A DNA stretch of 46,699 nucleotides from contig BAAIJX010000097.1 of NCBI GenBank assembly GCA_054600435.1, positions 1 through 46,699 of the forward strand. The letters are read 5' to 3'. The DNA comes from Neophaeotheca triangularis (lineage: Eukaryota). The notes beneath the pieces were generated by a model, which was not told the origin of the DNA, did not search any database, and saw only the letters and a program-made list of their open reading frames with translations. The translations under genes and the position numbers were made by a program. Every line of letters begins with the position of its first letter. Positions within the stretch are counted from its first letter, which is position 1. This document shows positions 26,901 to 42,597 of this stretch, one piece after another.

Positions 26901-28958
26901 GCATCTTTGCCGAGTTCTATACTTACTTCGAAAACTTGACAGAAATTCGGTGCAGACAAGCCCCTAAGGTGGCCGAGTCGAATCTACTCAACAGCTCGAT
27001 CGAGGGAGTGGAAGGCAGACATCTGGCGCGAGATGCAGAAGTTCTTCTGGATTGAGAGGGGCAAGTTGGAGTAGGCAGGCATTGTCGAGGAGCTCGAAGA
27101 CGCGGTCCATACGCTTGGCTGCTCCAAATCGTTCGAGAGTCGCAAGGCTGCGGCGGCGGAATACCCCAGATATTGCACCGTCAAGATGTCGCTTTCGACG
27201 ACGAATAGCAGCTTTTGTGCTTAGTGGGCATTCCAACCTCCAGTAACGGGGCGGACAGATCTGTCGGTCCGCACTCGAAAACCTACCAGCACGGCGGTGA
27301 GATGCGGCGCATCCTTGTCGGCCAGGGAGAAGGCGAGATGTCTCGCTTACAAGACGTCGATTCTTTGTTGCGAATTGAGCTGCAGCAAGTGCGGACATTA
27401 CCATTCGAGCCTTCGGGCCACTACTGCCCCCTTGGTTCATAGCAAGAATTTTGTTTCAAAGTGCAAGAAACTACTCTTCCATCCTCCCGTAGGTCCAGTT
27501 GACGGAAACAAGACGCCCGGAGCCTTCCAGAGAGGCAAGCCGCACACGGTCGGTCGCGTTCACCGATGGAGTTGTGCAAGGAGTGTGGGTCTGCGTGGCA
27601 GGAAAATGCGCCGAGTGCAAAGCGAAAGGCATTGGAGGACGTGTTGTGGTCCTTGTGGACTCGGCGGATTGATAAGAATAATATTGAAGCGGAGCTCGGA
27701 TTGGCATTCAAGGCAAGAGTTCGCTTCAATCTCGGGGGTAAAATAAAAACGGGCAGGTGTGCTGTGGTGACGCTCTTTTTGCATTATTGACAATCGGGGG
27801 CTTTAGTGAAGGGTAGATGGAGGCGAGGCCGCGAGCACCGTCACGTCCGCGAAGAAAGTCGGCACTTGGGTAAGGAAGGGAAGATATCTGACAGCTGTTG
27901 CGAAGTGTCTTGACTCGGACTCGGACGTTTGAGCGTTTTATCAAAGGCAAGATGGCTGTCTCTGCCCAATTGTGCGCGTTCGTATGAGGGCAGAAAGGTA
28001 GTCGCCCGGGTAGGAGGTACTACTAGGCAGCAGGATCGTTGGTACGGGTCAGAAAAAGAGTTGCAATTGCGTAGATGAGACCCATATTGGCAACACGTGC
28101 CAAGGCACCCGCTAGAATGCTGATTGCTGACTGGCTGCTCACGGGTCAACCGTTTGGAGATCACGAAACCTTGAAATAAATAGCACAAGGATGATAATAA
28201 TAATACCTAAATTACTCATGCCCACCTGGGCAGGTGGTGACGATCAACGTTCACGCAGAACCACCTGGGCACGCTTATATCAGTAATTATGGGGTTGAAA
28301 AACTCAAAAGGGCTCACATCTGTGCTATATCGGGATTAGCGCGGCGTACAACAGGGCTGCATCGTCTTGGCCGAAAATAACCATTGACAGGTGCCGGATA
28401 CGCGCATTTGGTGTTACTAGTACCTCCCTGGTTAGTACTTAGTAGCGATGATGCTAGCCATTTTTAGTCTTTGACCTTTTGCAGAGCTTGCCCTGATGAT
28501 GATGAGAGACGTCGGCAAGTCGGGTGCCATTCTGTCTGCCCTCGTCTGCTGATAACGTTATTGGCATCAACCTCTTCCAAAGCTCCGCGCGGCAGAGTGT
28601 GCCTGGCGGCTCGGGTGTGGATTCCTCAAGCTCATCATACCCAAGACCTTACCTTCGATACTACCCAACCTACCTACCTACTTAGCCTCTACCTAAGGTA
28701 GACGGGTTCGGTAGTCGGTATTCCCGCGTGGCGGTCCCACGGTCAAACCTTGACAATATGCGTCAGCAGCGTCACTGCTACTAACTTAATGCCAGAGCTA
28801 GGTACGCCGGTTTTTAATAGGGAAAAGCCCCCCGTCGACACGGTGCCCAGTGTCGCTCACTCTAATACCCAAACGGTAGGAACAATCCCATCGAGGCCCC
28901 TGGATACTACACGTTTAGACCTCCCTCAACCCTCCCACCTTCTTATCTATATTCAGCA

Positions 28959-31339
28959 ATGTCGCAAGGACGGGTTCTATTCGTCGACGCCTACGACTCG
29001 TTCTCCAACAACATCATTAACCTGCTCAAGGACCAATTGGCAGTGGAAGTTGCCTCGGTCAGAATAGACGACCCTAGATTCATCTCCGACAACAAAGCAT
29101 GGCTCGACTTCCTCAGCGGCTTCGATGGAGTAGTGGCTGGTCCAGGGCCCGGACACCCTGCTAATGCCGGCGACATTGGACTGATAGCAAGTCTTTGGGA
29201 CTTACCAGAAGACCACATGCTCCCAGTTCTCGGCATCTGCCTTGGTTTCCAGAGTCTGGCCATGAACTTGGGAGCGACGGTCGAGCGATTGCTGGAGCCG
29301 CGACACGGCCTCATCACCCAAATTTCTCACGGTGGGCGCGATGTGTTTGTCGACACAGGGGATGTGCGGAGCACGCAATACCACTCGCTGAGGGCAGAGA
29401 CTGGCCACCCTTCGCCACGAGATGTCAAGTCCCTCTGGACACCTTCGAAGCAATGCGCTGACATGTTGCCCCTTGCTTGGGATTTGAGTGATGACTTGAA
29501 CGGCCCAATCTTAATGTCAATCAGGCATTGCCACAAGCCACTTTGGGGAATGCAGAACCATCCAGAGTCTATCTGCACAAATGCCGAAGGTCACAAGATT
29601 ATCAGCAATTGGTGGCTGGCAGCTCAGCAATTCAACAAAACGGAACGTTCAAGGCCACTCCAAAGCGCGCCCGCCGTCCCCTTGAAGAAGCCACAACCAA
29701 TGGAAACGTACCCTCGGGAGTTGACCAGGGAAATCACACCGCCCAGAAATGGCCAAGATGCATTTGTCGATCAAGTACAGTGCCTGTCTTTTGCTGTCGA
29801 AACTGGCATCAACGCTGCTGCCATTGCGGAGCTCTCCCACTCGCAAGAGCAAGAACCCATCCTGCTAGAATCTGGCACCAGGGACGGCAAGCCTCTCAAC
29901 CCAGGAACCGGGCGGTATAGCATCTTGGGCCTTCAAGACAACTCGTCTCTCCGTGTCCGATATTCATGCGCCAACCACACCATCAAAGTCGAAGCAAATG
30001 GATCCGTCGCTTACGAGAGGGAGGCTTCGATTAGCCATGTCTTCGATTTGCTCGATGAAATCATGAAAGAGCACAGGATAAACCACGGACCGGCTGATAC
30101 TCCGTTCTGGGGTGGCCTGGTAGGATTCGTCTCGTACGAGGCTGGTCTTGAGACATTGGACGTCACAACCGACCTCCAGGCCTCCGCGCCAGCCGATGTC
30201 TGGTTCGTTTTCGTCGAAAGAAGCGTCGTCATTGACCACGTGGAGGGGGTTGTTCACGTACAGTCTATTCGCTCACGCAATGACACCGAGTGGCTGCATG
30301 CCACTAGGGACGGTATCATTGCCGCTGCAAAGCGTGAGGGACTCTCCAAACCCAAGAGTGCCCCGGCTAGCGACCCCTCGGCCTCCGTAATCTCCGAGCC
30401 TGCGAAGAGCGACTACTGCCACAAGGTCAGGCAATGCCAAGAATGTCTCCGAGCTGGCGAGTCTTACGAGCTCTGCTTGACGGGCCAAACGCAAATCGCC
30501 AACACAGAGCATTCCTGGTCGATGTACCGGAGATTGCGAGACTCGAACCCGGCTCCGTTTGGCGCCTACATGCATCTCAAGTCCACATCAGCGGACGACA
30601 TTGGCCTCTCCATCGTAAGCAGCAGCCCCGAGAGATTCCTCTCCTGGTCCCGCGAAGGAAAGTGTGAATTCAGACCCATCAAAGGCACCGTCAAGAAGAC
30701 GCCAGAGATGACCCGCGAGAAAGCCGAAGCAATCCTGTCGAGCAGCAAAGAGCAAGCCGAGAACCTCATGATCGTCGACCTAATCAGACACGATCTGAGC
30801 AGCGTCAAGGGGTTCGTACCAACCATTCCCCTTCCCAATACCTCCTCACTAACATCCCTTCCAGAATCCGCGACGTCGCCGTCCCAAAGCTCATGACGGT
30901 GGAAGAGTACGAAACCGTCTTCCAGCTCGTCTCAGTAATCCAAGGCCAACTCCCCACTCCCACACCCTTCGCACCAAAGCCCCAAACCCCCCTCGACCCC
31001 TCCCGCAGAGACACTTCCGGCATCGACGTCCTCAAATGCTCGCTCCCGCCGGGCTCCATGACAGGCGCGCCCAAGAAGCGCTCCTGCGAGCTCCTGCAGT
31101 CACTCGAAGACCACAAGGCGCGTGGCATCTACAGCGGCGTTCTCGGCTACATGGACGTTGGCGGCGGCGGCGATTTCTCCGTCGTCATCCGCACGGCTTT
31201 CAAGTGGGACGGTGCGGATGAGCCGTGGCGCATCGGCGCCGGTGGCGCCGTTACCGTGCTCAGTGACGATGTGGCCGAGTTTGAGGAGATGGAGACGAAG
31301 CGCGAGAGGCTTGTTTCATTGTTTGCGCCCGGGAACTAA
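28959..31339 (+). CDS. ABZ1: Aminodeoxychorismate synthase (PabA-PabB fusion); intron 30812-30864
   Basis: GATase domain (DAYDSF, GPGPGHP, GICLGFQ, YHSL, HPES) plus chorismate-binding domain (GESYELCLT, NPAPF, SSPERFL, PIKGT, KEQAENLMIVDLIRHDL, PPGSMTGAPKKR, RGIYSG, IRT, GAGGAVT). A 53-nt intron GTTCGT..ACTAAC..CAG joins the two ORFs. Confidence 0.96.
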
Positions 31340-32811: not shown

Positions 32812-35531
32812 TTACGCTAAAGGGCTGGAACAGTTGGTTGGGAGAGACTCACGTCGGTTGTGTTGATCAGGCTGCGGATCGTGGTGCGGGGAATCGTTGG
32901 GACTGCGAGTGTTGGCATTGCTGCCCTTTGCACGACTGGCGTCGAGGTAAACGTGCTTTTCCGCTGGAGTGATCAGTGGCTGGTCCCGGGGATTGGTAGA
33001 CACCGTGGCAGCGGGACTGGGATGTGTATATCGTGGGTCATCGGGGTGCGGGACGCCAAGTTGGTCTCTCCTTGGGTCTTCCATGGCCATTTGGTCTATT
33101 GGGTCGTCCAGCTGTCATCAGACCGGTCTTCCCTTGGGTCTCTCGTCTGGTACGGATCATGTAGTCGATACTGAGAATCCCTCACAGCTGCACTGCTGTC
33201 ATCTGCTGGCTGCGACATTGGTACGTAGTAGTTTCCCGGTCTCACATATCCAGGTGGAGGTCCGTCAATGCTTCCAGGAGCAGTGGCATATCCTGAGTCC
33301 GGTTGGAAACTCGAGGTCATTGGCGGCCTTCCATAACTCATTTGCGATCTTCCATCCGGATACCTCGGATCAACGTTAGTACCAATGTTAATGGGATGGC
33401 TACGAAATTCGGCCTGTGGATCCATAGAGTATCGAGGATCTCTTTGCTGATCCCTCGGATCTCTAGGGTCTGGAGCATACTGGCGCGCATCTGGCTGACT
33501 CGAATATCTCGAAGGGGGACGATCGTGATAAGTAGGCGGATACTCTCGGGGATCGAGTGATTCTTGCACTGAGTGTCGGCCCCAAACAGACGCCTTGTGT
33601 GTTGCGGATCCAACGTAGGGCTCTGTGGATGAGTTTAGCTTAGGTCCTTCGCTCGAGTAGCATAAGCATGTCCTTACCTCTCGTCCCAGTAACTCTCTGC
33701 TCTTGTCTCCACCGAGCTGAGTCCCGTTTGAGGTCTGCGATCATATCCTATAGGTTGCTTCAGCACGTGTAAGAACGTGGTGTGAGTTCGTATTCTTACA
33801 GTTGTCAGATTCCGGTGTGCTTTGATCCAGTAGCCTTGGAAGTTCTATTGGAACCTGGTCAGTGCTGTGTCACATTTGATCATCTCAAAGTCCCAGCTTC
33901 ACCTCGTAACTGCCATTGCCCATACCGGGCCTTGCGGTCGCATTATCTCCGAGATATCTTTGGACGTCTGCAGAGATGACATGCTGGTCAATGCCTTCTC
34001 CAGGAACAAACCATTGCCTCGAAAGTTGGCCGCTGCTCGTATCGTGCGTGGATGTATAACTCGAATGAGACGACTGAGCGAGGCGAGCTTGCAGGCCCAT
34101 TTGCTCCAAAGGCGATAGGATCTGTTGTGCGTCGGTAGGTGCGGGGACGCAATCAATAGCACGCTTCCGTCGCTCGGCCTCCGCGCCGTGCTCCGTGAGC
34201 ACAATCATGGCCAGTTCTTCCAGATGGCGTCCAACGTGCTTTGAGTAAAGCGATGCTGATTTAGTCGTCCACTGGCATAAGGGGCATGTATGAGCTGGCC
34301 AGTGAATTGATGTTTGAGGAGAGTTGGCGGCGATAGCCTCTATCACTCCTGGGTCCATGGATTGATCATGATGTTCTCGAATGTGAGTCTTCAGCGAATC
34401 AAGAAACATCCGTGGCGAATCCCCCAAGGGCGCACATCGATAAGGACATGCATACAATACGTTGTGGTGCACATCGTGATGTCGCATCCAGTCCCTCCGT
34501 TGATAGAATGACCCACTCTCGCACCCTTCGACAAGGCAGACATAGGGGGGCACATCTTCAAAAACGTGCCGCCGCCAGTCATCCGCAGTCTGTGCAACGA
34601 TGATGCTGTAACAAAGTGGACATTCGAATGGCTCGCCAAATTGCGCAGCTTCCGGCCATGTCGGAAAGCCTAGTCTGTTGGCTCCTGACAATGATTCTGC
34701 GTACGATGTCATCTCAGCATCGTAAAGGGCATCCTCACTTCTCTGACTGGCAGAACCGATTTCTTCGGTGTCTTGCTCCGCCAAAGAAGCCCTCTCCGAC
34801 GAAGCAACGAGAACGTTCGAGTCCTCCTTTTCATCTTGAACTTCTTCATCAAGACCAGCCCTTGATTGCGTGTGACGAAGCTCGCAAAATTGCAGGTACT
34901 GTCTTTTCTTGGAAACGGTTTTAGCCAGCCGCTGTTGGAGGTAACTTGGCGCCTGCGGGAAGATTTTGGCAACGTATGAAATTTCCAAGTGCCCCAGCCC
35001 GTGTATGTGAGCCGGGAGTGCCACTACTGCTTGGTCGTGTCGAGCTGGTCGCCGAAGTGCCATGGAAAAGCGCAAAAGGCAGCTGATGATCTCTTTGACT
35101 TCATCCAAAGGACTTTTGAAAGGGACAAGATCGGTGTCGCTCTCACTCTCACTGATCTCGAATCTCTCATCATCATGGAAATCATCATCCTCCTTGTGGA
35201 TCGTGCCCTGAGTTCCTCTCTTGACAGAAGCCGCGCCTTTCTGAGGTGCGTCTTCATCTGACATCAGCTTTTTCAGATTTTCCAGAGCATCTGACAAGTC
35301 TTGCAGAAGATTCAAAACCATCCTCTGAAGGTTTGTGGAATCTCTGAGTCGATACTCCAACGAAATTCGACAATGGGCAGGTCTGTGAGCAGCGATGTTG
35401 CTCGTCCACACCCTGAACCGACCTATCTGATCATCGATTTCGCGCCAGTGAAGGGTGTCGCGAAGCTGGGTGAACGTGTTCAGGCATATTTGCACGAGTG
35501 GGGGTATTTTGCCTCTACCTGGTCTCTCCAT
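32812..35531 (-). CDS. Chimeric protein: fungal N-terminal helical domain + C2H2 zinc fingers + RfeG-like module; exons 35531-33903, 33844-33800, 33747-33678, 33622-33096, with an out-of-frame continuation to about 32812
   Basis: N-terminal GRFRVWTSNIAAH...SLEYRLRD; zinc fingers FECPLC..WRRHVFED..PYVC..C..W..H...H and CPLC..HVGRHLEELA. Then QWFVPGEGIDQHVISADVQRYLGDNATARPG|NFQGYWIKAHRNLTT|DMIADLKRDSARWRQE|EPY and a DPR-rich tail. Three canonical introns were verified in frame. Alternative start ATG at 35681. Confidence 0.75.
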
Positions 35532-35866
35532 TGTAACATATATCTCGCAGGCTTTGGACGTTCGGATGGAAGTGTCTTGCTGGTAACGACTCAAAGAGAA
35601 GGCTCTCGCAGCGTGGCGTGGTCCCGAGTTGAAGCTATATGCGCACCTAGCGATGTATTGGGATGACCAGCTTGGGGTCATGCGCTGGCGGATCTAGAAG
35701 GCATGGCATTAGTCGCCCCCCACCTTGACCGGTCTGCACATAGTACGTACCTGTCAGCAAGCTAAGATACTCACATGCAACCCCAACTACCTTCGCCCAC
35801 TTCGATGTTCTGCAATCCTTGTTGTCTTCTTGAAGTCGTCGCTGGTTCTCATCCACGTATCGAAAC

Positions 35867-37735
35867 ATGTCGGGCGTTGAGGTCGTTGGAGTGGTCCTCG
35901 GAGCGATTCCTCTTGTCATATCAGGTAAGTGATCATTATAGAGTCTTTTGCGCAACATAGTATTGATCAACTCAATCCAGGAGTCGAACACTATGCCGAT
36001 GGCGTCAGAACCATCAAATCATTTCGAGATTATCCACGAGAATTTGCGAGCTTGGCTCGTCGTCTGCGAATCGAAGAGCTGATCTTTGTGAATACTGTCG
36101 AAAAGATTCTGTTGGACTGCGTCGAGGCTGACTTGGTACGAGAGCTACTGGCAGCGCCGAATGGTGACTCTTGGTCTGAGCCTGCGGTCAAGCGTGCTCT
36201 TCAAGGGAGACTAGGGTCGTCCTATGATCTCTATATCGACACGATCGAGAGCATGCAAAAGTCGGTAGAGGCCTTCAAGCTGCGGTTAAAGCTTGACCGC
36301 AATGGCAAAGTATAAATTGATTCCAGAGGCCCTTTGACTTGTGAAAAACTGACCTGGTAGCCCGCAGGTACCTTTCACCAACGACCCCTCTTCTTTCAAA
36401 GAAGCCTATTTTCGATTCAAATTTAGTCTCAAACGATCAAACTACACCGATCTGGTCAATGAACTATGCAAAGACAATGCAGCTCTGGACAAGTTGACCG
36501 AACAAGAGCAGATCCTGAGACCATTGCGAGCGTCTCGGGCATCTATGGACTTCGACAGGTTCCGCTCACGGGTGACAAGTGCTTTTGACTCGCTCCAGCG
36601 TGGCATGCATAGATCGTGCAAGTCATTACACACAGCCTATCTTAATGTGGATGCCGTGGAAGCTGCTCAAAAGCTGGGAGATTCGAGGGACTCCGACCCG
36701 GCCATGAGAGTTCTTATATGCCACCGTACTGAAACAACTCCCGTTCCAACAGGTACGGCTTGCGAGGAGACCGAGATGAGACTATTGACACCTCAATCAC
36801 TAAGGGCTTCGCCGACGACGGCACAAGCGATGTCAATGACCACTGAAAGTCCAGCATTGCAGGCTGCCACTATGGGATCGCCTAGTCTCTCAATTCTTGA
36901 AGTGGCGGAGATCACCGACATATGTGAAAGTATGGAGAACTCTCGCACAAAGGGGTGTGGCGCCTATTTGGGCTTCTTCCAAGATAGTGCAAGAGGCTTC
37001 TATCACGGTGTATTCTGGCCGACGAACCCCATTCTTGAGGCAAAGAAGATCACGAACCCGTTCTCTTTAGCTGACGTCTTTAGCGGAAAGTGGTCGGGCC
37101 CAGAACTGTCTGTAGGGGAGTGTCGACAGCTCGCTGCGCATCTCGCTTCCAGCATGCTGTGTCTCTACGACACCCCGTGGTTGGCTAAGCAATGGGGCTG
37201 CAAGGAAGTCGTCCTTTTCCAGAAAGGCCGCGAGCTCATCATGGCCCGCCCGTTCATTTCCACCAAAGTCAATTCAAGCAGACCACTGACGCTCGTCACC
37301 AACCCACCTGATCAATACTTGACACCACGTGTTGGCATTCAGAACGAGACCGTCTTCGATTCACCTGATCAATACTTTACGCCATGTGTTGGCATTCAGA
37401 ACGAGACCGTCTTCGCACTCGGAATCGTTCTCATCGAGCTCTGCCTTCGGAGACCTTTCAAAAGCTTGATGTTACCAGCAGAGTTGAACGCAGACGGCAC
37501 ACAGCATGAAATGTCGGACTTTTACACAGCCATGCGAGTCTTGGTCGAAGTCGACGCTACTGCTGGACGCAATTATGGAGATGCCGTGAGGCGGTGTGTA
37601 CAGGGTTGCTTGGGCATCAGCGATGCAAAACTGGAGCATGATGATTTTCGCCGTTCCATCTTCGATGGAGTCGTCGCCGTGCTTCAAAAGGATGTTGACA
37701 CTTTCTTTGGCAGGACGTTATTACCACGGTCCTGA
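35867..37735 (+). CDS. HeLo-like N-terminal helical domain + degenerate kinase-like (pseudokinase, DUF7580-like) domain; exons 35867-35924, 35981-36309, 36368-37735
   Basis: Spliced N-terminus MSGVEVVGVVLGAIPLVISGVEHY..G, the hydrophobic helix typical of HeLo-like domains. C-terminal QLAAHLASSMLCLYDTPWLAKQW...NETVFALGIVLIELCL...YGDAVRRCV resembles a kinase C-lobe without HRD or DFG. Introns GTAAGT..CAG (56 nt) and GTATAA..CAG (58 nt) keep the frame. Confidence 0.8.
37305..37415 (+). repeat. 57-bp in-frame tandem duplication within the CDS
   Basis: cacctgatcaatactt(g/t)ac(a/g)cca(c/t)gtgttggcattcagaacgagaccgtcttcg at 37305 and 37362; 3 mismatches over 54 nt. Confidence 0.95.
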
Positions 37736-38910: not shown

Positions 38911-41793
38911 CTAAGACCCACTCATAATAACCCCCAGCGCATTCTGGCCCTCAGCATCCAACTTCTCCCCCACAAACTTGCCCACCTTCCCATCCCTCCC
39001 ATCTCTCTCCCTCAAAACAGCCGCAACCCAAGCCTTGACATCCTGCACCTCCGGATGCGCATCCTTGGCGGGAGCTTTGCAAGTATTGAGCTGCGTGAAA
39101 GCGCTGGTGAAACCCAACTCCTCCATGTCGCGGTCCTCGATGGTGTCGTCGGCGGCCAGGGGCAAGGGCGGGTTGATGAGGAGTTTGAGGAGAGCTTCGC
39201 AGGTCCAGCCCCAGCCTTTTTTCGCGTAGCGGGATTCGAAGGCCGTGGAATCCGTGAGAGTGCGGGTGAGGGCCACGACGGCGGTTTTGCGGTCGTAGGC
39301 GCGAGAAAGTTTTTGCGTGTCTGGAAGGATGATGGTGGTGTAGAGGGGCGTGAAGACGTTTTCTTGCACCTGGTCGGCGATGGAGATGAAGAAATCGGCG
39401 CCGAGGGATTGAGGGGGGTCGGGCAAGGAGGCGACGAGGTGGTAGAAGCGCACGAAGCGGAGTTTGAAGCCTTCTGTGCTGGTGTTGGAGAGGCGGGTGA
39501 GCATGAGTTGGAGGAGGGTTTGCCAGTAGGTTTGGAGTGAATTGGGCGGAAAGGAGGTGACGACGCTTTCGATCAGGTCCATGGCGTACGATTCGTACGA
39601 CTTGAGGGCTACAAGGCGTTGGAAGATGAGGAGGATTGATTCGGTCTGGTTGGCGGCGGCGATTTGGGCGGCGCCGCGGGGGAGGAGCGCACAAAGAAGG
39701 CGGGTTAGGGCCGGGACGTTGCCTTTGCTTTCCCAGAGTTTTGGGGCGAGGACGGCGGTGAGGAGTTGTTGGAAGTTGGGGGAGAGGGTTAGCGCGGGGT
39801 TGGTCGAGACCATGGCGGCGAAGAGCTGGAAGACATAGGGGGTGAATTCTTCAACTTCGTTTTGAAGGACTTCGCCGAAGACTGGGAAGAGCGCGGCGTC
39901 GAGTTTATCGGGTTGAGCGGGCCCGGCAAATCGTATCAGTGCACCCAGCGCCTCGAAGTGGTAGTAGCAGAAGCTTGGGTTGGACGGGTTGTGTCGGATG
40001 ACTTTTGTGATGTTGACCAGGTTTGTGAGTGCAATGTCCATGACGGGCACCACGCCGTCGGCGATGGTGATGAGCACGCGCATGACACACTTCATCAGGT
40101 ACTCGTTCTCCTGCACCTTCTCAGGCTTGGTATCCGCAGTGATGAGCTTGAACAGGTGCTGCAAGAGGTCCTTGGCCAGAGGCTCAATGTTGGCGCGTGG
40201 AATAACAGACTGCCTTTGCTCGTCGCGGAGGTACAGAGCCCGGTCCACAGCGATGGCGGCGTAGGTGTAAACCACATAGTTGGAAGAATTGAGGTGCTGG
40301 ACGAGCAAGGGGAAAGCTGCTTGCCACTGCGGTGCGGAGAGGATGCTGCGGAAGATGTAGAGGTATTTGATGGCGCCGACCTTGAGCAGGGGAACGGAGT
40401 TGGGATCGGTCAGGTCTTCGGCGACGTTCTTCTGGAAGTAATCGATGACATCGACGTTGGGGTTGACGCTCAAAACACCGCGAGCGGCCGTAGCAACACC
40501 CTTTGCGGCGATGGAAGAGAACAAGTGGACAGCCGTGTCCTTGGCCTTCCAGTTGTCTTTCCTGTCCTTGGCGTACTCCGCGAGAAAGTGGTCGACGTAT
40601 CGCATAACGACATCTGTGACAGGTTTCTCAAACTGCTCCATGAGCTTCTTGAGGAATGTTGTCGCGGCTCTCCTCCTCGAGTCATCATCACTGCCCTCCA
40701 AGTCTCGTCGAATAAACTCAATCGGCTCGTCCTCGAACAATTCAACATCACTTTCTCTGAGACTGAGATTGGGCAGCACAACCTTCTCTGTGACCTGTCC
40801 TAGTACCTCGGTGTTGTTGAAGCTCTCGGCGTGTTGCCGTATGCTAGCAATTGTCGTCAAAAATTCCAACGCTCTGCTCACAAGCAGATCATACTTTGTC
40901 TCGGGCCCGATTGTAGTAAGGAAATTCCAGCTCGTGCCAATGAACGGAGTGATGTGAGGTCCAAAAGCATCCTCGTACTTCTTCGTATACAGCACCAACC
41001 CCTCAAAAACCCCAGCTCTCACATGCTCAAGACTGCCCGCCTCATCGTCTGCGTCCGAAGCGAGCGCCGGGTCGTCGAAGGTCAAATATTTGTGCAGCAG
41101 CCCAGCGATGGGTTGCAAATGGTCCTCAAACTGCGGCGGCAAATCCTGACTGCTCAGATCGTTGAATAGCTTCACAATCAAGTCCATCGTCCCCATATAA
41201 GTCTCCAGAGCCTTCTTGTTGCCCCTGTTCTGCTCAATTACAGCATCCGTGCGCTGCCACAGCTGCAGGAAAGGTTCGGCGAATTTGGACAGCACGTGGT
41301 TGATCTCGGTATAAAGCTCATCACTCCTGTAGAGCGGCCTCCACCTCTTGAAGATGCTGTGCGCGACTTGCAAAACGCCATTGTTGACGCCGGCATCATC
41401 TGCCGTCAGCCGGCTCACCAGGTCATCGACAAGAGTATCCCACCGCTGCCAAAAGTCCGAATCGGCAATGACGGAGATGGCATCACCGAGTTGTGCTTGC
41501 AGCGCCGGGGGCACTTTCACCATAAGGCCTATGAGTTCCGACTTGATAGTCTGCACCTCTTGAGCGGGCAACTTGTGCACGCCATCCTCGTCGGTCCAGT
41601 TGCGCTTGATGAAGTTTTTGAAGAAGAGGGCGGCGGCGAGGCGCGTGCTGAGGGGTTGGGATTCGTCGGCGACGAGTTGGAGTAGTGAGAGGGAGAAGTT
41701 GGGTTGGCTGGCCTCCGCCTCGCGCAGGGAGCTTTCGGCCTCTCTTCTGCGTGAGGGATCGAGGGTTGCTTGGAGCAGCTCTGCTACCGACAT
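38911..41793 (-). CDS. CSE1: Exportin-2 / importin-alpha re-exporter Cse1 (960 aa, intronless)
   Basis: IBN_N domain RLAAALFFKNFIKRNW, then QLGDAISVIADSDFWQRWDTLVDDLV, FKRWRPLYRSDELYTEINHVL, FEDEPIEFIRRDLEGSD..RRRAA, YVVYTYAAIA, ENEYLMKCVMRVL, NPSNPSFCYYHFE. ATG at 41793. Confidence 0.97.
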   Translation of the reverse strand: MSVAELLQATLDPSRRREAESSLREAEASQPNFSLSLLQLVADESQPLSTRLAAALFFKNFIKRNWTDEDGVHKLPAQEVQTIKSELIGLMVKVPPALQAQLGDAISVIADSDFWQRWDTLVDDLVSRLTADDAGVNNGVLQVAHSIFKRWRPLYRSDELYTEINHVLSKFAEPFLQLWQRTDAVIEQNRGNKKALETYMGTMDLIVKLFNDLSSQDLPPQFEDHLQPIAGLLHKYLTFDDPALASDADDEAGSLEHVRAGVFEGLVLYTKKYEDAFGPHITPFIGTSWNFLTTIGPETKYDLLVSRALEFLTTIASIRQHAESFNNTEVLGQVTEKVVLPNLSLRESDVELFEDEPIEFIRRDLEGSDDDSRRRAATTFLKKLMEQFEKPVTDVVMRYVDHFLAEYAKDRKDNWKAKDTAVHLFSSIAAKGVATAARGVLSVNPNVDVIDYFQKNVAEDLTDPNSVPLLKVGAIKYLYIFRSILSAPQWQAAFPLLVQHLNSSNYVVYTYAAIAVDRALYLRDEQRQSVIPRANIEPLAKDLLQHLFKLITADTKPEKVQENEYLMKCVMRVLITIADGVVPVMDIALTNLVNITKVIRHNPSNPSFCYYHFEALGALIRFAGPAQPDKLDAALFPVFGEVLQNEVEEFTPYVFQLFAAMVSTNPALTLSPNFQQLLTAVLAPKLWESKGNVPALTRLLCALLPRGAAQIAAANQTESILLIFQRLVALKSYESYAMDLIESVVTSFPPNSLQTYWQTLLQLMLTRLSNTSTEGFKLRFVRFYHLVASLPDPPQSLGADFFISIADQVQENVFTPLYTTIILPDTQKLSRAYDRKTAVVALTRTLTDSTAFESRYAKKGWGWTCEALLKLLINPPLPLAADDTIEDRDMEELGFTSAFTQLNTCKAPAKDAHPEVQDVKAWVAAVLRERDGRDGKVGKFVGEKLDAEGQNALGVIMSGS

Positions 41794-42597
41794 GGCGGTG
41801 TGGTGAAAGTGAAGCAGATGGATATGTCTGCTGGATGTCGATTTGACTTGGGTTTGTGTAGGGAGTGTGGATGGGTGAGGGAGAAAGTGTTTCTCAAGTG
41901 TGAAAAGAAGTGTAGTGTAATAAACAAACGGAAGCTTGACGTTGGTCTGAGAGAGCTTTGACTTTTCTCCAAATGCTCGGTGATGCTTCATCCACCGCCC
42001 GCCGCCCGGCCCTATAGGAGGTACATCTTCACCATCCTTGCCAACGCCAACGCGCTAAACTTTACAGCAGAGCCTCAGGGTTCATTGCTTACCTTACCAA
42101 CTTACTCACGTGCTTAGGTACTCTACGGCAACATCATGTGTGGCGTTGCGTCCTTTACGAGTACATCCTGGCCTCGCATCTTAAATGCTGGGACATGAAA
42201 CCTCGAAGATAGTAAATCACAGGCGACACAACGAAAGTCATTCCGATTATCCTGTCTGTTCATTGCGTCTGCTATTCTATTCCTAAGAAGGGGGGTATCA
42301 TATGATGCAAACGCTCCCAAAACCATTCCGTTCCATTCCATAATCGTGCTCGTGTTGCGTACGCCGACGCGGGGAATCGTCAGTCTGTGGCGAGGTAAAG
42401 CCCTTTCTACTCGCGATAAGGAAGAACATAGAAAAGCAAAAACGCCCTGTAGCATTGCAATGCCAAAACCCGTCAAATCGTGCAATCGTTTCTTTCCCGA
42501 GACATCAGCATATCCAAGCCGCTTATGTCAGTCTTGCAAAATTCGACTCGTCTACCCGTCGTCGTCGCGGGTGCCACCAATGTAACTTCCCGTCATA

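Follow-up and report, generated by a model that had tools for sequence, protein, structure and literature searches.

We examined a head-to-head gene pair in a 46,699-nt stretch of Neophaeotheca triangularis DNA (GenBank assembly GCA_054600435.1, contig BAAIJX010000097.1; hereafter, the window), in which a left gene on the minus strand encodes a C2H2 zinc-finger protein and a right gene on the plus strand encodes a protein with an N-terminal helical bundle and a DUF7580 domain. An earlier note, made from the sequence alone, had proposed that the two genes form a surveillance system not built on an NLR (nucleotide-binding domain and leucine-rich repeat protein). Our analysis suggests that they are one copy of a widespread two-gene sensor/executioner module of filamentous ascomycetes that does without a nucleotide-binding oligomerization domain (NOD), a reading whose chances of being correct we consider about evenly balanced. 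It fits best because the right protein has an MLKL-like layout, the linkage is old and tight, the two genes have diverged together, the pair is duplicated and deleted as a unit, and the left protein joins a constant core to an exchangeable tail.

The linkage of the two genes is nonrandom and is kept across distantly related fungi. Metagenome contigs were scanned with a single pattern derived from the DUF7580 alignment (LG[IV][VLF]L[IL]EL[CW][LMF]), which matched 208 stretches, 127 of them confirmed; the best 80 gave 79 loci (L numbers below). DUF7580 domains of these loci are 22–39% identical to that of the window, and therefore the linkage is old. Pairing was counted from the DUF7580 loci outward, the left protein being searched by tblastn. 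A left-family gene was found head-to-head directly upstream in 56 of 60 testable loci (the remaining 19 of the 79 were too short upstream), a count that comes from contigs picked by one peptide pattern and is hence no census. Clustering at 85% nucleotide identity gave 45 clusters, 12 of which were untestable, and the head-to-head arrangement was present in 32 of the 33 others. The spacing of the pair, measured to the first aligned residue in 36 loci, has a median of 423 nt (range 258–832). In the control, a left-family match downstream was found in 0 of 79 loci (424,832 nt of downstream flank). Recurrent head-to-head adjacency of the homologs, which the earlier note had made a test of its proposal, was thus observed.

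Four loci depart from this arrangement, three of them deletion alleles. When L012 and L016 were compared with 98%-identical relatives (L015 and others), a 5.7-kb deletion was seen that covers both the partner and the 5' half of the neighboring DUF7580 gene; L059, compared with L009, has a 3.2-kb deletion in which the partner and 5' sequence of the DUF7580 gene are likewise lost. Such deletions in near-identical contigs (about 98%) amount to presence/absence polymorphism of the module. The fourth, L042 (L042:3500-7660), has an adjacent partner on the same strand as the DUF7580 gene, both frames looking intact, and is the sole testable cluster with a tandem instead of a divergent arrangement. 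L029 carries two complete head-to-head pairs (L029:1-2900 and L029:5500-10447) about 6 kb apart, one of whose partners has an array of tetratricopeptide repeats (TPR); therefore, both genes appear to have been duplicated together. Across 28 nonredundant loci, the pairwise divergences of one gene correlate with those of the other (Mantel r = 0.72, reached in 0 of 5,000 permutations), although sampling any two genes from one set of genomes would produce part of this correlation.

The C-terminus of the left partner is exchangeable. In 30 representative loci, 144 open segments downstream of the core were scanned with Pfam, and the frame that ends the core was found to run directly into a Pfam domain in 13 of these 30 loci (table 1). 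Precomputed Pfam annotation of database relatives lists ULD_2, PF26118, BAG/ubiquitin, RA, DnaJ, trypsin, TPR, PHD, and Myb. The swappable C-terminal domains that had been predicted for the C2H2 partner were therefore seen directly, both across the representative loci and among database relatives. Additional matches in separate frames (ankyrin repeats (ANK) in L009 and L026, Myb in L051, TUDOR in L063, and DUF1690 in L024) may belong to later exons or neighboring genes. Three of the ANK and TPR tails are arrays with high internal identity (table 1); repeats that are nearly identical within an array typify the sensor domains of fungal NLRs. The kinase-like domain in the L067 partner (L067:5080-6663, minus strand; Pkinase family, E = 5e-40) keeps the Gly-rich loop and the AVK lysine, whereas LRG replaces HRD and SFG replaces DFG, so that this partner carries a second pseudokinase integrated in a sensor-like gene. 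The RfeG-like tail of the window was found in 0 of the 79 pair loci.

The constant part of the left protein is a core of about 450 amino acids. It comprises a helical N-terminus with the motif GRFxVW..N.GAH....SL.YRLRD (GRFRVW..AH..SLEYRLRD in the window), a CLLRxSMxLRxPARHD segment (CLLRFSMALRxPARHD in the window), and three spaced C2H2-type fingers with invariant Cys and His residues (C304, C307, H322, C332, C337, H351, C416, C419, H432, and H436). The left profile weakly matches the zinc fingers of GLI (E = 0.0035), AEBP2, and JACKDAW, which together with the invariant columns supports the zinc fingers read in this gene by the earlier note. A total of 152 relatives were detected at E <= 0.001; among the 120 of them that were listed, only two lack a precomputed match to PF26082, the acuF-like C2H2 family. 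Relatives with this match resemble the left protein of the window at E values down to 1.6e-83 and share its invariant Cys/His columns. One database name for a relative is "Oxidoreductase acuF...". Scanning of the window protein itself, with a Pfam set that does not include PF26082, returned GAGA only (E = 0.0063). NLR membership was considered and rejected: a motif search found no Walker A motif (G-x4-GK[ST]) in the left protein and Pfam gave no NACHT or NB-ARC match, so that it is not an NLR and the description of the system as non-NLR stands.

The right protein ends in a kinase-fold domain that is catalytically dead. Its third exon matches Pfam DUF7580 (PF24476) at E = 4.1e-19 (69.8 bits; gathering cut-off 27) over profile positions 5–318 of 319. 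An AlphaFold2 model of this exon (mccddfe80ccf9; 42 aligned relatives, predicted local distance difference test (pLDDT) 83) has a complete bilobal protein-kinase fold. All 50 matches listed by Foldseek are protein kinases, PAK1 being the best (E = 1.6e-4) and the MLKL pseudokinase ranking ninth. In the Foldseek-independent comparison by VIA, all 50 matches listed over model range about 66–450 are kinases or pseudokinases (Z 7.8–9.9), mostly of the tyrosine kinase-like type (Roco4, RAF, IRAK1, RIP3 at Z 9.0, AtMLKL3 at 8.4, and MLKL at 7.9). A motif search of the right protein found no Gly-rich loop (GxGxxG), VAxK, HRD, or DFG, and the family alignment of the DUF7580 region has no Asp or Lys column kept at 90% or more; as read from alignment and model, HRD is replaced by TPWL and DFG by PF[IV]S. 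As the catalytic motifs are missing and no Asp or Lys column is conserved, the DUF7580 domain is a pseudokinase. Fold matches, motif search, and alignment columns thus agree on the kinase-like region without HRD and DFG that had been noticed earlier, and the right protein, as modeled, is a catalytically dead kinase-fold protein with an MLKL-like layout. Its named relatives come from Dothideomycetes, Sordariomycetes, Lecanoromycetes, and Eurotiomycetes.

Several local features of this protein were also observed. An in-frame tandem duplication of 57 bp doubles the 19 residues PDQY[LF]TP[RC]VGIQNETVF directly before the conserved RNETxFALG helix; it falls at the position of an activation segment, in a low-confidence loop of the model (302–345), and the aligned relatives do not show it. 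In most relatives, the kinase-like N-lobe opens with a CxCxxxHxAxL motif (alignment columns near 370–385; exon 3 residues about 70–85), possibly a metal site, of whose two Cys the window protein keeps only one. In P0014 of Pseudocercospora fijiensis (620 amino acids, DUF7580), an unrelated N-terminus of about 250 amino acids replaces the helical bundle, and P0014 may represent a form that is derived and unpaired.

For the N-terminal region, which is about 200 residues long, an intronless relative was modeled (L056:8776-9420; 33 aligned sequences, pLDDT 84), and the model is a bundle of long helices. Its first helix contains a motif kept throughout the family (MSGxExAGxxLGAxPL), with G3, E5, G8, L11, and P15 conserved at 90% or more. 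VIA matched the model to the coiled-coil (CC) domain of Rx (Z 9.4, root-mean-square deviation 2.5 over 105 residues), the Sw-5b SD (10.3), the MLA13 CC (7.6), MLKL residues 2–116 (7.9), AtMLKL3 residues 1–140 (7.7), the MLKL N-terminal domain (7.0), and the HET-S HeLo domain (6.8), all values below about 13, under which the tool itself warns that matches between helical bundles are unspecific. Most of these matches align starting at their own first residues. In an Atlas language-model search, PF14479 (HeLo) was present in 8 of the 30 nearest clusters (score 0.94, 178 shared features); every row of an Atlas structure search with P0162 had a template modeling score below 0.4. A profile search with the N-terminal domain gave 4,248 cluster representatives (50% identity clustering) at E <= 0.001; among the best 150 of these 4,248, which were inspected, 50 of the 61 long representatives carry DUF7580, and the combination of the two domains is constant. 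According to the gene model and the two domain models, bundle, brace, and pseudokinase follow one another in a single polypeptide. Based on the model, the bundle is likely similar to HeLo and four-helix bundle (4HB) domains, whereas HeLo membership as such is compatible with these results and unproven. Of the HeLo-type N-terminus put forward in the earlier note, the helical bundle with 4HB and HET-S among its matches held up; the assignment to HeLo itself found Pfam matches in 2 of 33 members at E values of 0.13 or higher and indecisive Z values. Neither this fold test nor the one on adjacency refuted the earlier proposal.

A complex of the left core of the window (450 amino acids) with right exon 3 (455 amino acids) was predicted with an interface score (ipSAE) of 0.59 (runs 0.59, 0.57, and 0.61), which lies in the weak band and was obtained without family alignments; the highest score among three controls was 0.00. 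Of 78 solved complexes, 51 reach the mark that the pair passes, as do 2 of 108 mismatched pairs; only 5 of the 78 reach it at 0.60 or under, together with all 4 passing mismatches (of 180). Contact agreement between runs was at least 29% and partner pLDDT at least 63. The complex model suggested for the pair in the earlier note therefore passes with clean controls at a weak score, and lends weak support to binding of the left core to the right pseudokinase. Given the strong prior from the conserved linkage, we count this prediction as a modest increment.

From these data a mechanism may be proposed. The left protein would be a sensor or regulator whose constant core holds the pseudokinase of the right protein. 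An event at the variable C-terminus, such as ligand binding, modification, or loss, would change this hold, and the N-terminal bundle of the right protein would then be freed to oligomerize and act on membranes, as do MLKL and HET-S. We infer direct binding, this direction of control, and membrane attack, with a role in immunity or allorecognition. Somewhat short of probable, in our view, is a broader proposal: the left family may constitute a large class of NOD-less intracellular immune receptors of fungi in which a zinc-finger core takes the place of the NTPase, sensing is left to NLR-type hypervariable ANK/TPR arrays or to integrated host-target domains, and each receptor is wired genetically and physically to its own MLKL-like executioner.

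A number of observations weigh against the sensor/executioner reading, many of them concerning the N-terminal bundle. The model was built for the L056 relative, about 30% identical in exon 2, and not for the spliced protein of the window. Foldseek gave no match to it at E <= 0.001, and generic and designed helical bundles head the VIA list (best Z 10.9), with the Z values of 6.8–9.4 falling among them. Pfam HeLo (PF14479) matches 2 of 33 family members with a best E value of 0.13; one weak match, in P0003, is at the expected position (residues 172–210 against profile positions 153–189 of 205), in the stretch equivalent to the start of right exon 3. Neither the window exons nor the relatives scanned with Pfam matched HeLo, Helo_like_N (PF17111), or SesA significantly, and a search of PDB sequences with the N-terminal profile returned a designed claudin and weak kinase matches only, with no HeLo or MLKL. 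In P. fijiensis, the best matches to the two genes are on different scaffolds, and P0014 has the different N-terminus described above. Myb and classical zf-C2H2 tails suit a transcription factor as well as bait. The pattern-based sampling of loci, the part of the co-divergence due to shared genomes, and the weak band and missing alignments of the complex prediction also belong here.

Fairly unlikely is the possibility that the C2H2 protein is a transcription factor that controls, or is coregulated with, its divergent neighbor, the pseudokinase serving in a stress, developmental, or trafficking pathway. The fingers fit the C2H2 consensus and weakly match the DNA-binding fingers of GLI (E = 0.0035), two partners have Myb and one a classical zf-H2C2_2 domain, one database source names the relative P0077 a "putative transcription factor", and divergent promoters often couple a regulator with its target. 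However, the fingers are few and widely spaced and form no tandem array, and most recognizable tails are interaction or repeat modules (ANK, TPR, SH3, GYF, and ULD_2). Near-identical repeat arrays would be unusual for a pathway-specific regulator, and the complex prediction, weak as it is, puts the core on the pseudokinase while all three controls score 0.00. An unlikely explanation of another kind is a nonlethal scaffold pair, in which a pseudokinase-bundle adaptor works with a zinc-finger protein that recruits clients, for example, in ubiquitin-related or cytoskeletal signaling. Scaffolding is a common role of pseudokinases, partner tails include ubiquitin-like ULD_2, SH3, GYF, and Aip3p/Bud6-like segments, and the helical-bundle matches are not specific for death domains. 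On the other hand, the family is very large and divergent (4,248 representatives after clustering at 50% identity), near-identical contigs include deletion alleles, the whole pair is duplicated in L029, and the repeat arrays are of NLR type; a fast-evolving, dispensable repertoire fits these features better than a core scaffold does. Conservation of a hydrophobic first helix rich in Gly, and the HeLo clusters among the nearest ones, also point to the membrane-acting family.

Chance adjacency could be considered insofar as both families are large and the pair of the window sits among unrelated housekeeping genes. With 56 of 60 testable loci head-to-head, no match in 425 kb of downstream flank, correlated divergence, and single deletions that remove the partner and the 5' part of the right gene together, its probability is close to nil.

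Of the known systems close to the proposed sensor/executioner pair, mammalian MLKL has the same order of 4HB, brace, and pseudokinase; in the right protein these are a bundle, linker helices, and a kinase fold without catalytic residues. Both the pseudokinase and the 4HB of MLKL are among the structural matches, and a dedicated protein partner is implied, as RIPK3 is for MLKL. In contrast to MLKL, no sequence homology is detectable and the kinase-like domain forms its own Pfam family, DUF7580; in contrast to RIPK3, the partner is a zinc-finger protein encoded by the adjacent gene and not an active RHIM kinase, and nothing points to activation by phosphorylation. In plant MLKLs (AtMLKL1-3; 6ka4), a HeLo-type bundle is likewise combined with a brace and a pseudokinase. 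Both models have AtMLKL3 among their matches, the kinase part at Z 8.4 over 212 residues and the N-terminal model at Z 7.7 with residues 1–140; these values are moderate, and common descent is putative. We know of no conserved neighboring partner gene of plant MLKLs. An immune role has been described for them in the accessible part of a preprint (bioRxiv 10.1101/681015).

Among fungal systems, nwd2/het-S and PNT1/HELLP are adjacent pairs of a sensor with variable repeats and a HeLo/HELL membrane executioner, according to the portions available of PMC12881547, PMC3321046, and PMC4344463. The pair described here resembles these NLR/HeLo clusters in its adjacent sensor-executioner pairing and high-identity repeat arrays, and differs in that the partner has no NACHT/NB-ARC domain or Walker A motif and the executioner has a pseudokinase in place of the prion-forming tail. 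Signaling would therefore proceed by direct binding and not by amyloid templating. No amyloid-forming motif was noticed in the two proteins, no search aimed at such motifs having been made. Paired NLRs of plants (RGA4/RGA5 and RRS1/RPS4) are also encoded head-to-head, with a shared promoter and integrated domains. Likeness to them lies in the arrangement on a common promoter and in the division between one member with exchangeable integrated domains and another that executes; here, however, neither gene is an NLR, the kingdom is a different one, and the decoy nature of the variable domains is putative.

In the literature, we found no described function for the acuF-like family, no linkage of it to DUF7580 genes, and no paper that mentions DUF7580. 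According to the available part of a 2025 review (PMC12881547), some HELL domains share their protein with a kinase or pseudokinase domain, an arrangement that recalls MLKL; the review contains neither "C2H2" nor "zinc finger". No zinc-finger partner is mentioned in the accessible portions of PMC10197012, PMC12258605, and PMC9815663. No description of the pairing was found in a search that covered literature other than subscription journals and supplements. As far as we found, the pair is thus undescribed so far, and the known kind to which it would belong is the fungal two-gene cell-death or immune cluster.

Gene models of the window are as follows (coordinates in table 1). The pair is divergent and intact. 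The left frame is open from ATG 35681 or ATG 35531, giving gaps of 185 or 335 nt to the right ATG at 35867; starts of relatives align with 35531, and this start was therefore adopted. The intergenic region is presumably a bidirectional promoter common to both genes, which in the module generally spans about 0.3–0.5 kb. The right protein has 584 amino acids from three spliced exons, with MSGVEVVGVVLGAIPLVISG joined to VEHY... as in the earlier note, and this model agrees with relatives that lack intron 1 (the intronless L003) or intron 2 (L005). The left gene encodes about 756 amino acids. Its frame runs stop-free from the core into the start of a putatively RfeG-like domain, and beyond that point, by mapping of the public model P0065, it crosses three short introns to a stop at 33096-33098. 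For the RfeG-like part, Pfam found 0 families in P0065 and Atlas gave unnamed clusters only (0.80–0.84). In P0088 of Fusarium euwallaceae (700 amino acids), this domain likewise follows the core (BLASTP E = 3e-18, 39% identity). Core and tail were treated as one fused gene because the frame is uninterrupted and P0088 has both in one protein. P0065 itself (33096-34208) is a separate 315-amino acid gene whose start Met falls inside the conserved core motif HLEELAMIVL, and the public annotation probably splits the left gene wrongly. Frame and splice analysis reproduced both start-codon distances given in the earlier note, and Pfam matched both flanks of the position it gave between ABZ1 and CSE1; its left boundary, 32812, has to be corrected, being 284 nt too far in view of the annotated stop. 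Past this stop, a 92-amino acid open reading frame in another frame (32812-33090, minus strand) is rich in Pro, Asp, and Arg like the tail, and could be an alternative 3' exon or a remnant.

Table 1. Features of the gene pair in the window and C-terminal features of left partners in representative loci. Locations are window positions unless a locus is named.
Feature	Location	Strand	Size or copies	Details
ABZ1-like para-aminobenzoate (PABA) synthase gene	28866-31336			GATase + chorismate-binding; Pfam
Pro/Tyr/Asp/Arg-rich low-complexity tail and left-gene stop codon	33096..33623	-		Mapped from P0065
RfeG-like domain	33679..34016	-		QWFVPGEGIDQHVISADVQRYLG ... GYWIKAHRNLTT ... DMIADLKRDSARW; two short introns inside; exon mapping of P0065
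Left conserved core	34182..35531	-	Residues 1-450	Helical N-terminal region and zinc-finger module
C2H2-type zinc-finger module	34224..34628	-		Invariant Cys/His columns
Shared divergent intergenic region	35532..35866	none	335 nt
Right gene exon 1	35867..35924	+		Encodes MSGVEVVGVVLGAIPLVISG, hydrophobic Gly-rich first helix
Right gene exon 2	35981..36309	+		Central part of the N-terminal helical-bundle (HeLo-like) domain; matched by tblastn in 45 loci
Right gene exon 3	36368..37735	+		Ends with stop codon
Start of right exon 3	36368..36562	+		Last long helices of the N-terminal domain, brace-like linker; model helices 7-16, 23-55, 62-79
DUF7580 pseudokinase, both lobes and stop codon	36563..37735	+		Pfam PF24476, kinase-fold model
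In-frame 57-bp tandem duplication	37305..37415	+	1.9 copies	94% matches
CSE1 gene	38914-42054			Pfam
Ankyrin repeats	L031, L052, L060, L070, L073, L078			Continuous with core; L031 also DUF7104
Ankyrin repeats and kinase-like domain	L067			Kinase-like domain without HRD and DFG
TPR_10/TPR_12	L029			Continuous with core
ULD_2	L003			Continuous with core
Myb and classical zf-C2H2	L005			Continuous with core
SH3	L009			Continuous with core
GYF	L017			Continuous with core
Cyt-b5	L015			Continuous with core
ANK array	L073		Unit 99 bp, 11.5 copies	94% internal identity
TPR array	L029		Unit 126 bp, 8.6 copies	89% internal identity
ANK array	L052		Unit 99 bp, 17.8 copies	76-82% internal identity

Regulated cell death in fungi is explained by clusters of an NLR with HeLo/HELL amyloid templating and by clusters of a protease with a gasdermin. 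To our knowledge, MLKL-like fungal proteins have received one-sentence mentions in reviews, with no controller described for them. The pair described here provides a concrete and conserved candidate for their controller, and natural variants are at hand in the form of differing C-terminal sensors, deletion alleles, and duplicated pairs. Unlike all the systems considered above, it would use no NTPase, no obvious amyloid motif, and no protease. If the sensor/executioner reading is true, the module would represent a third architecture in fungal innate immunity or allorecognition, a necroptosis-like system that operates by direct protein contact, apart from the amyloid-templating and protease/gasdermin routes. 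It would also give functions to two large uncharacterized families, DUF7580 and the acuF-like C2H2 proteins, and would bear on the origin of the 4HB-pseudokinase design in animals, plants, and fungi.

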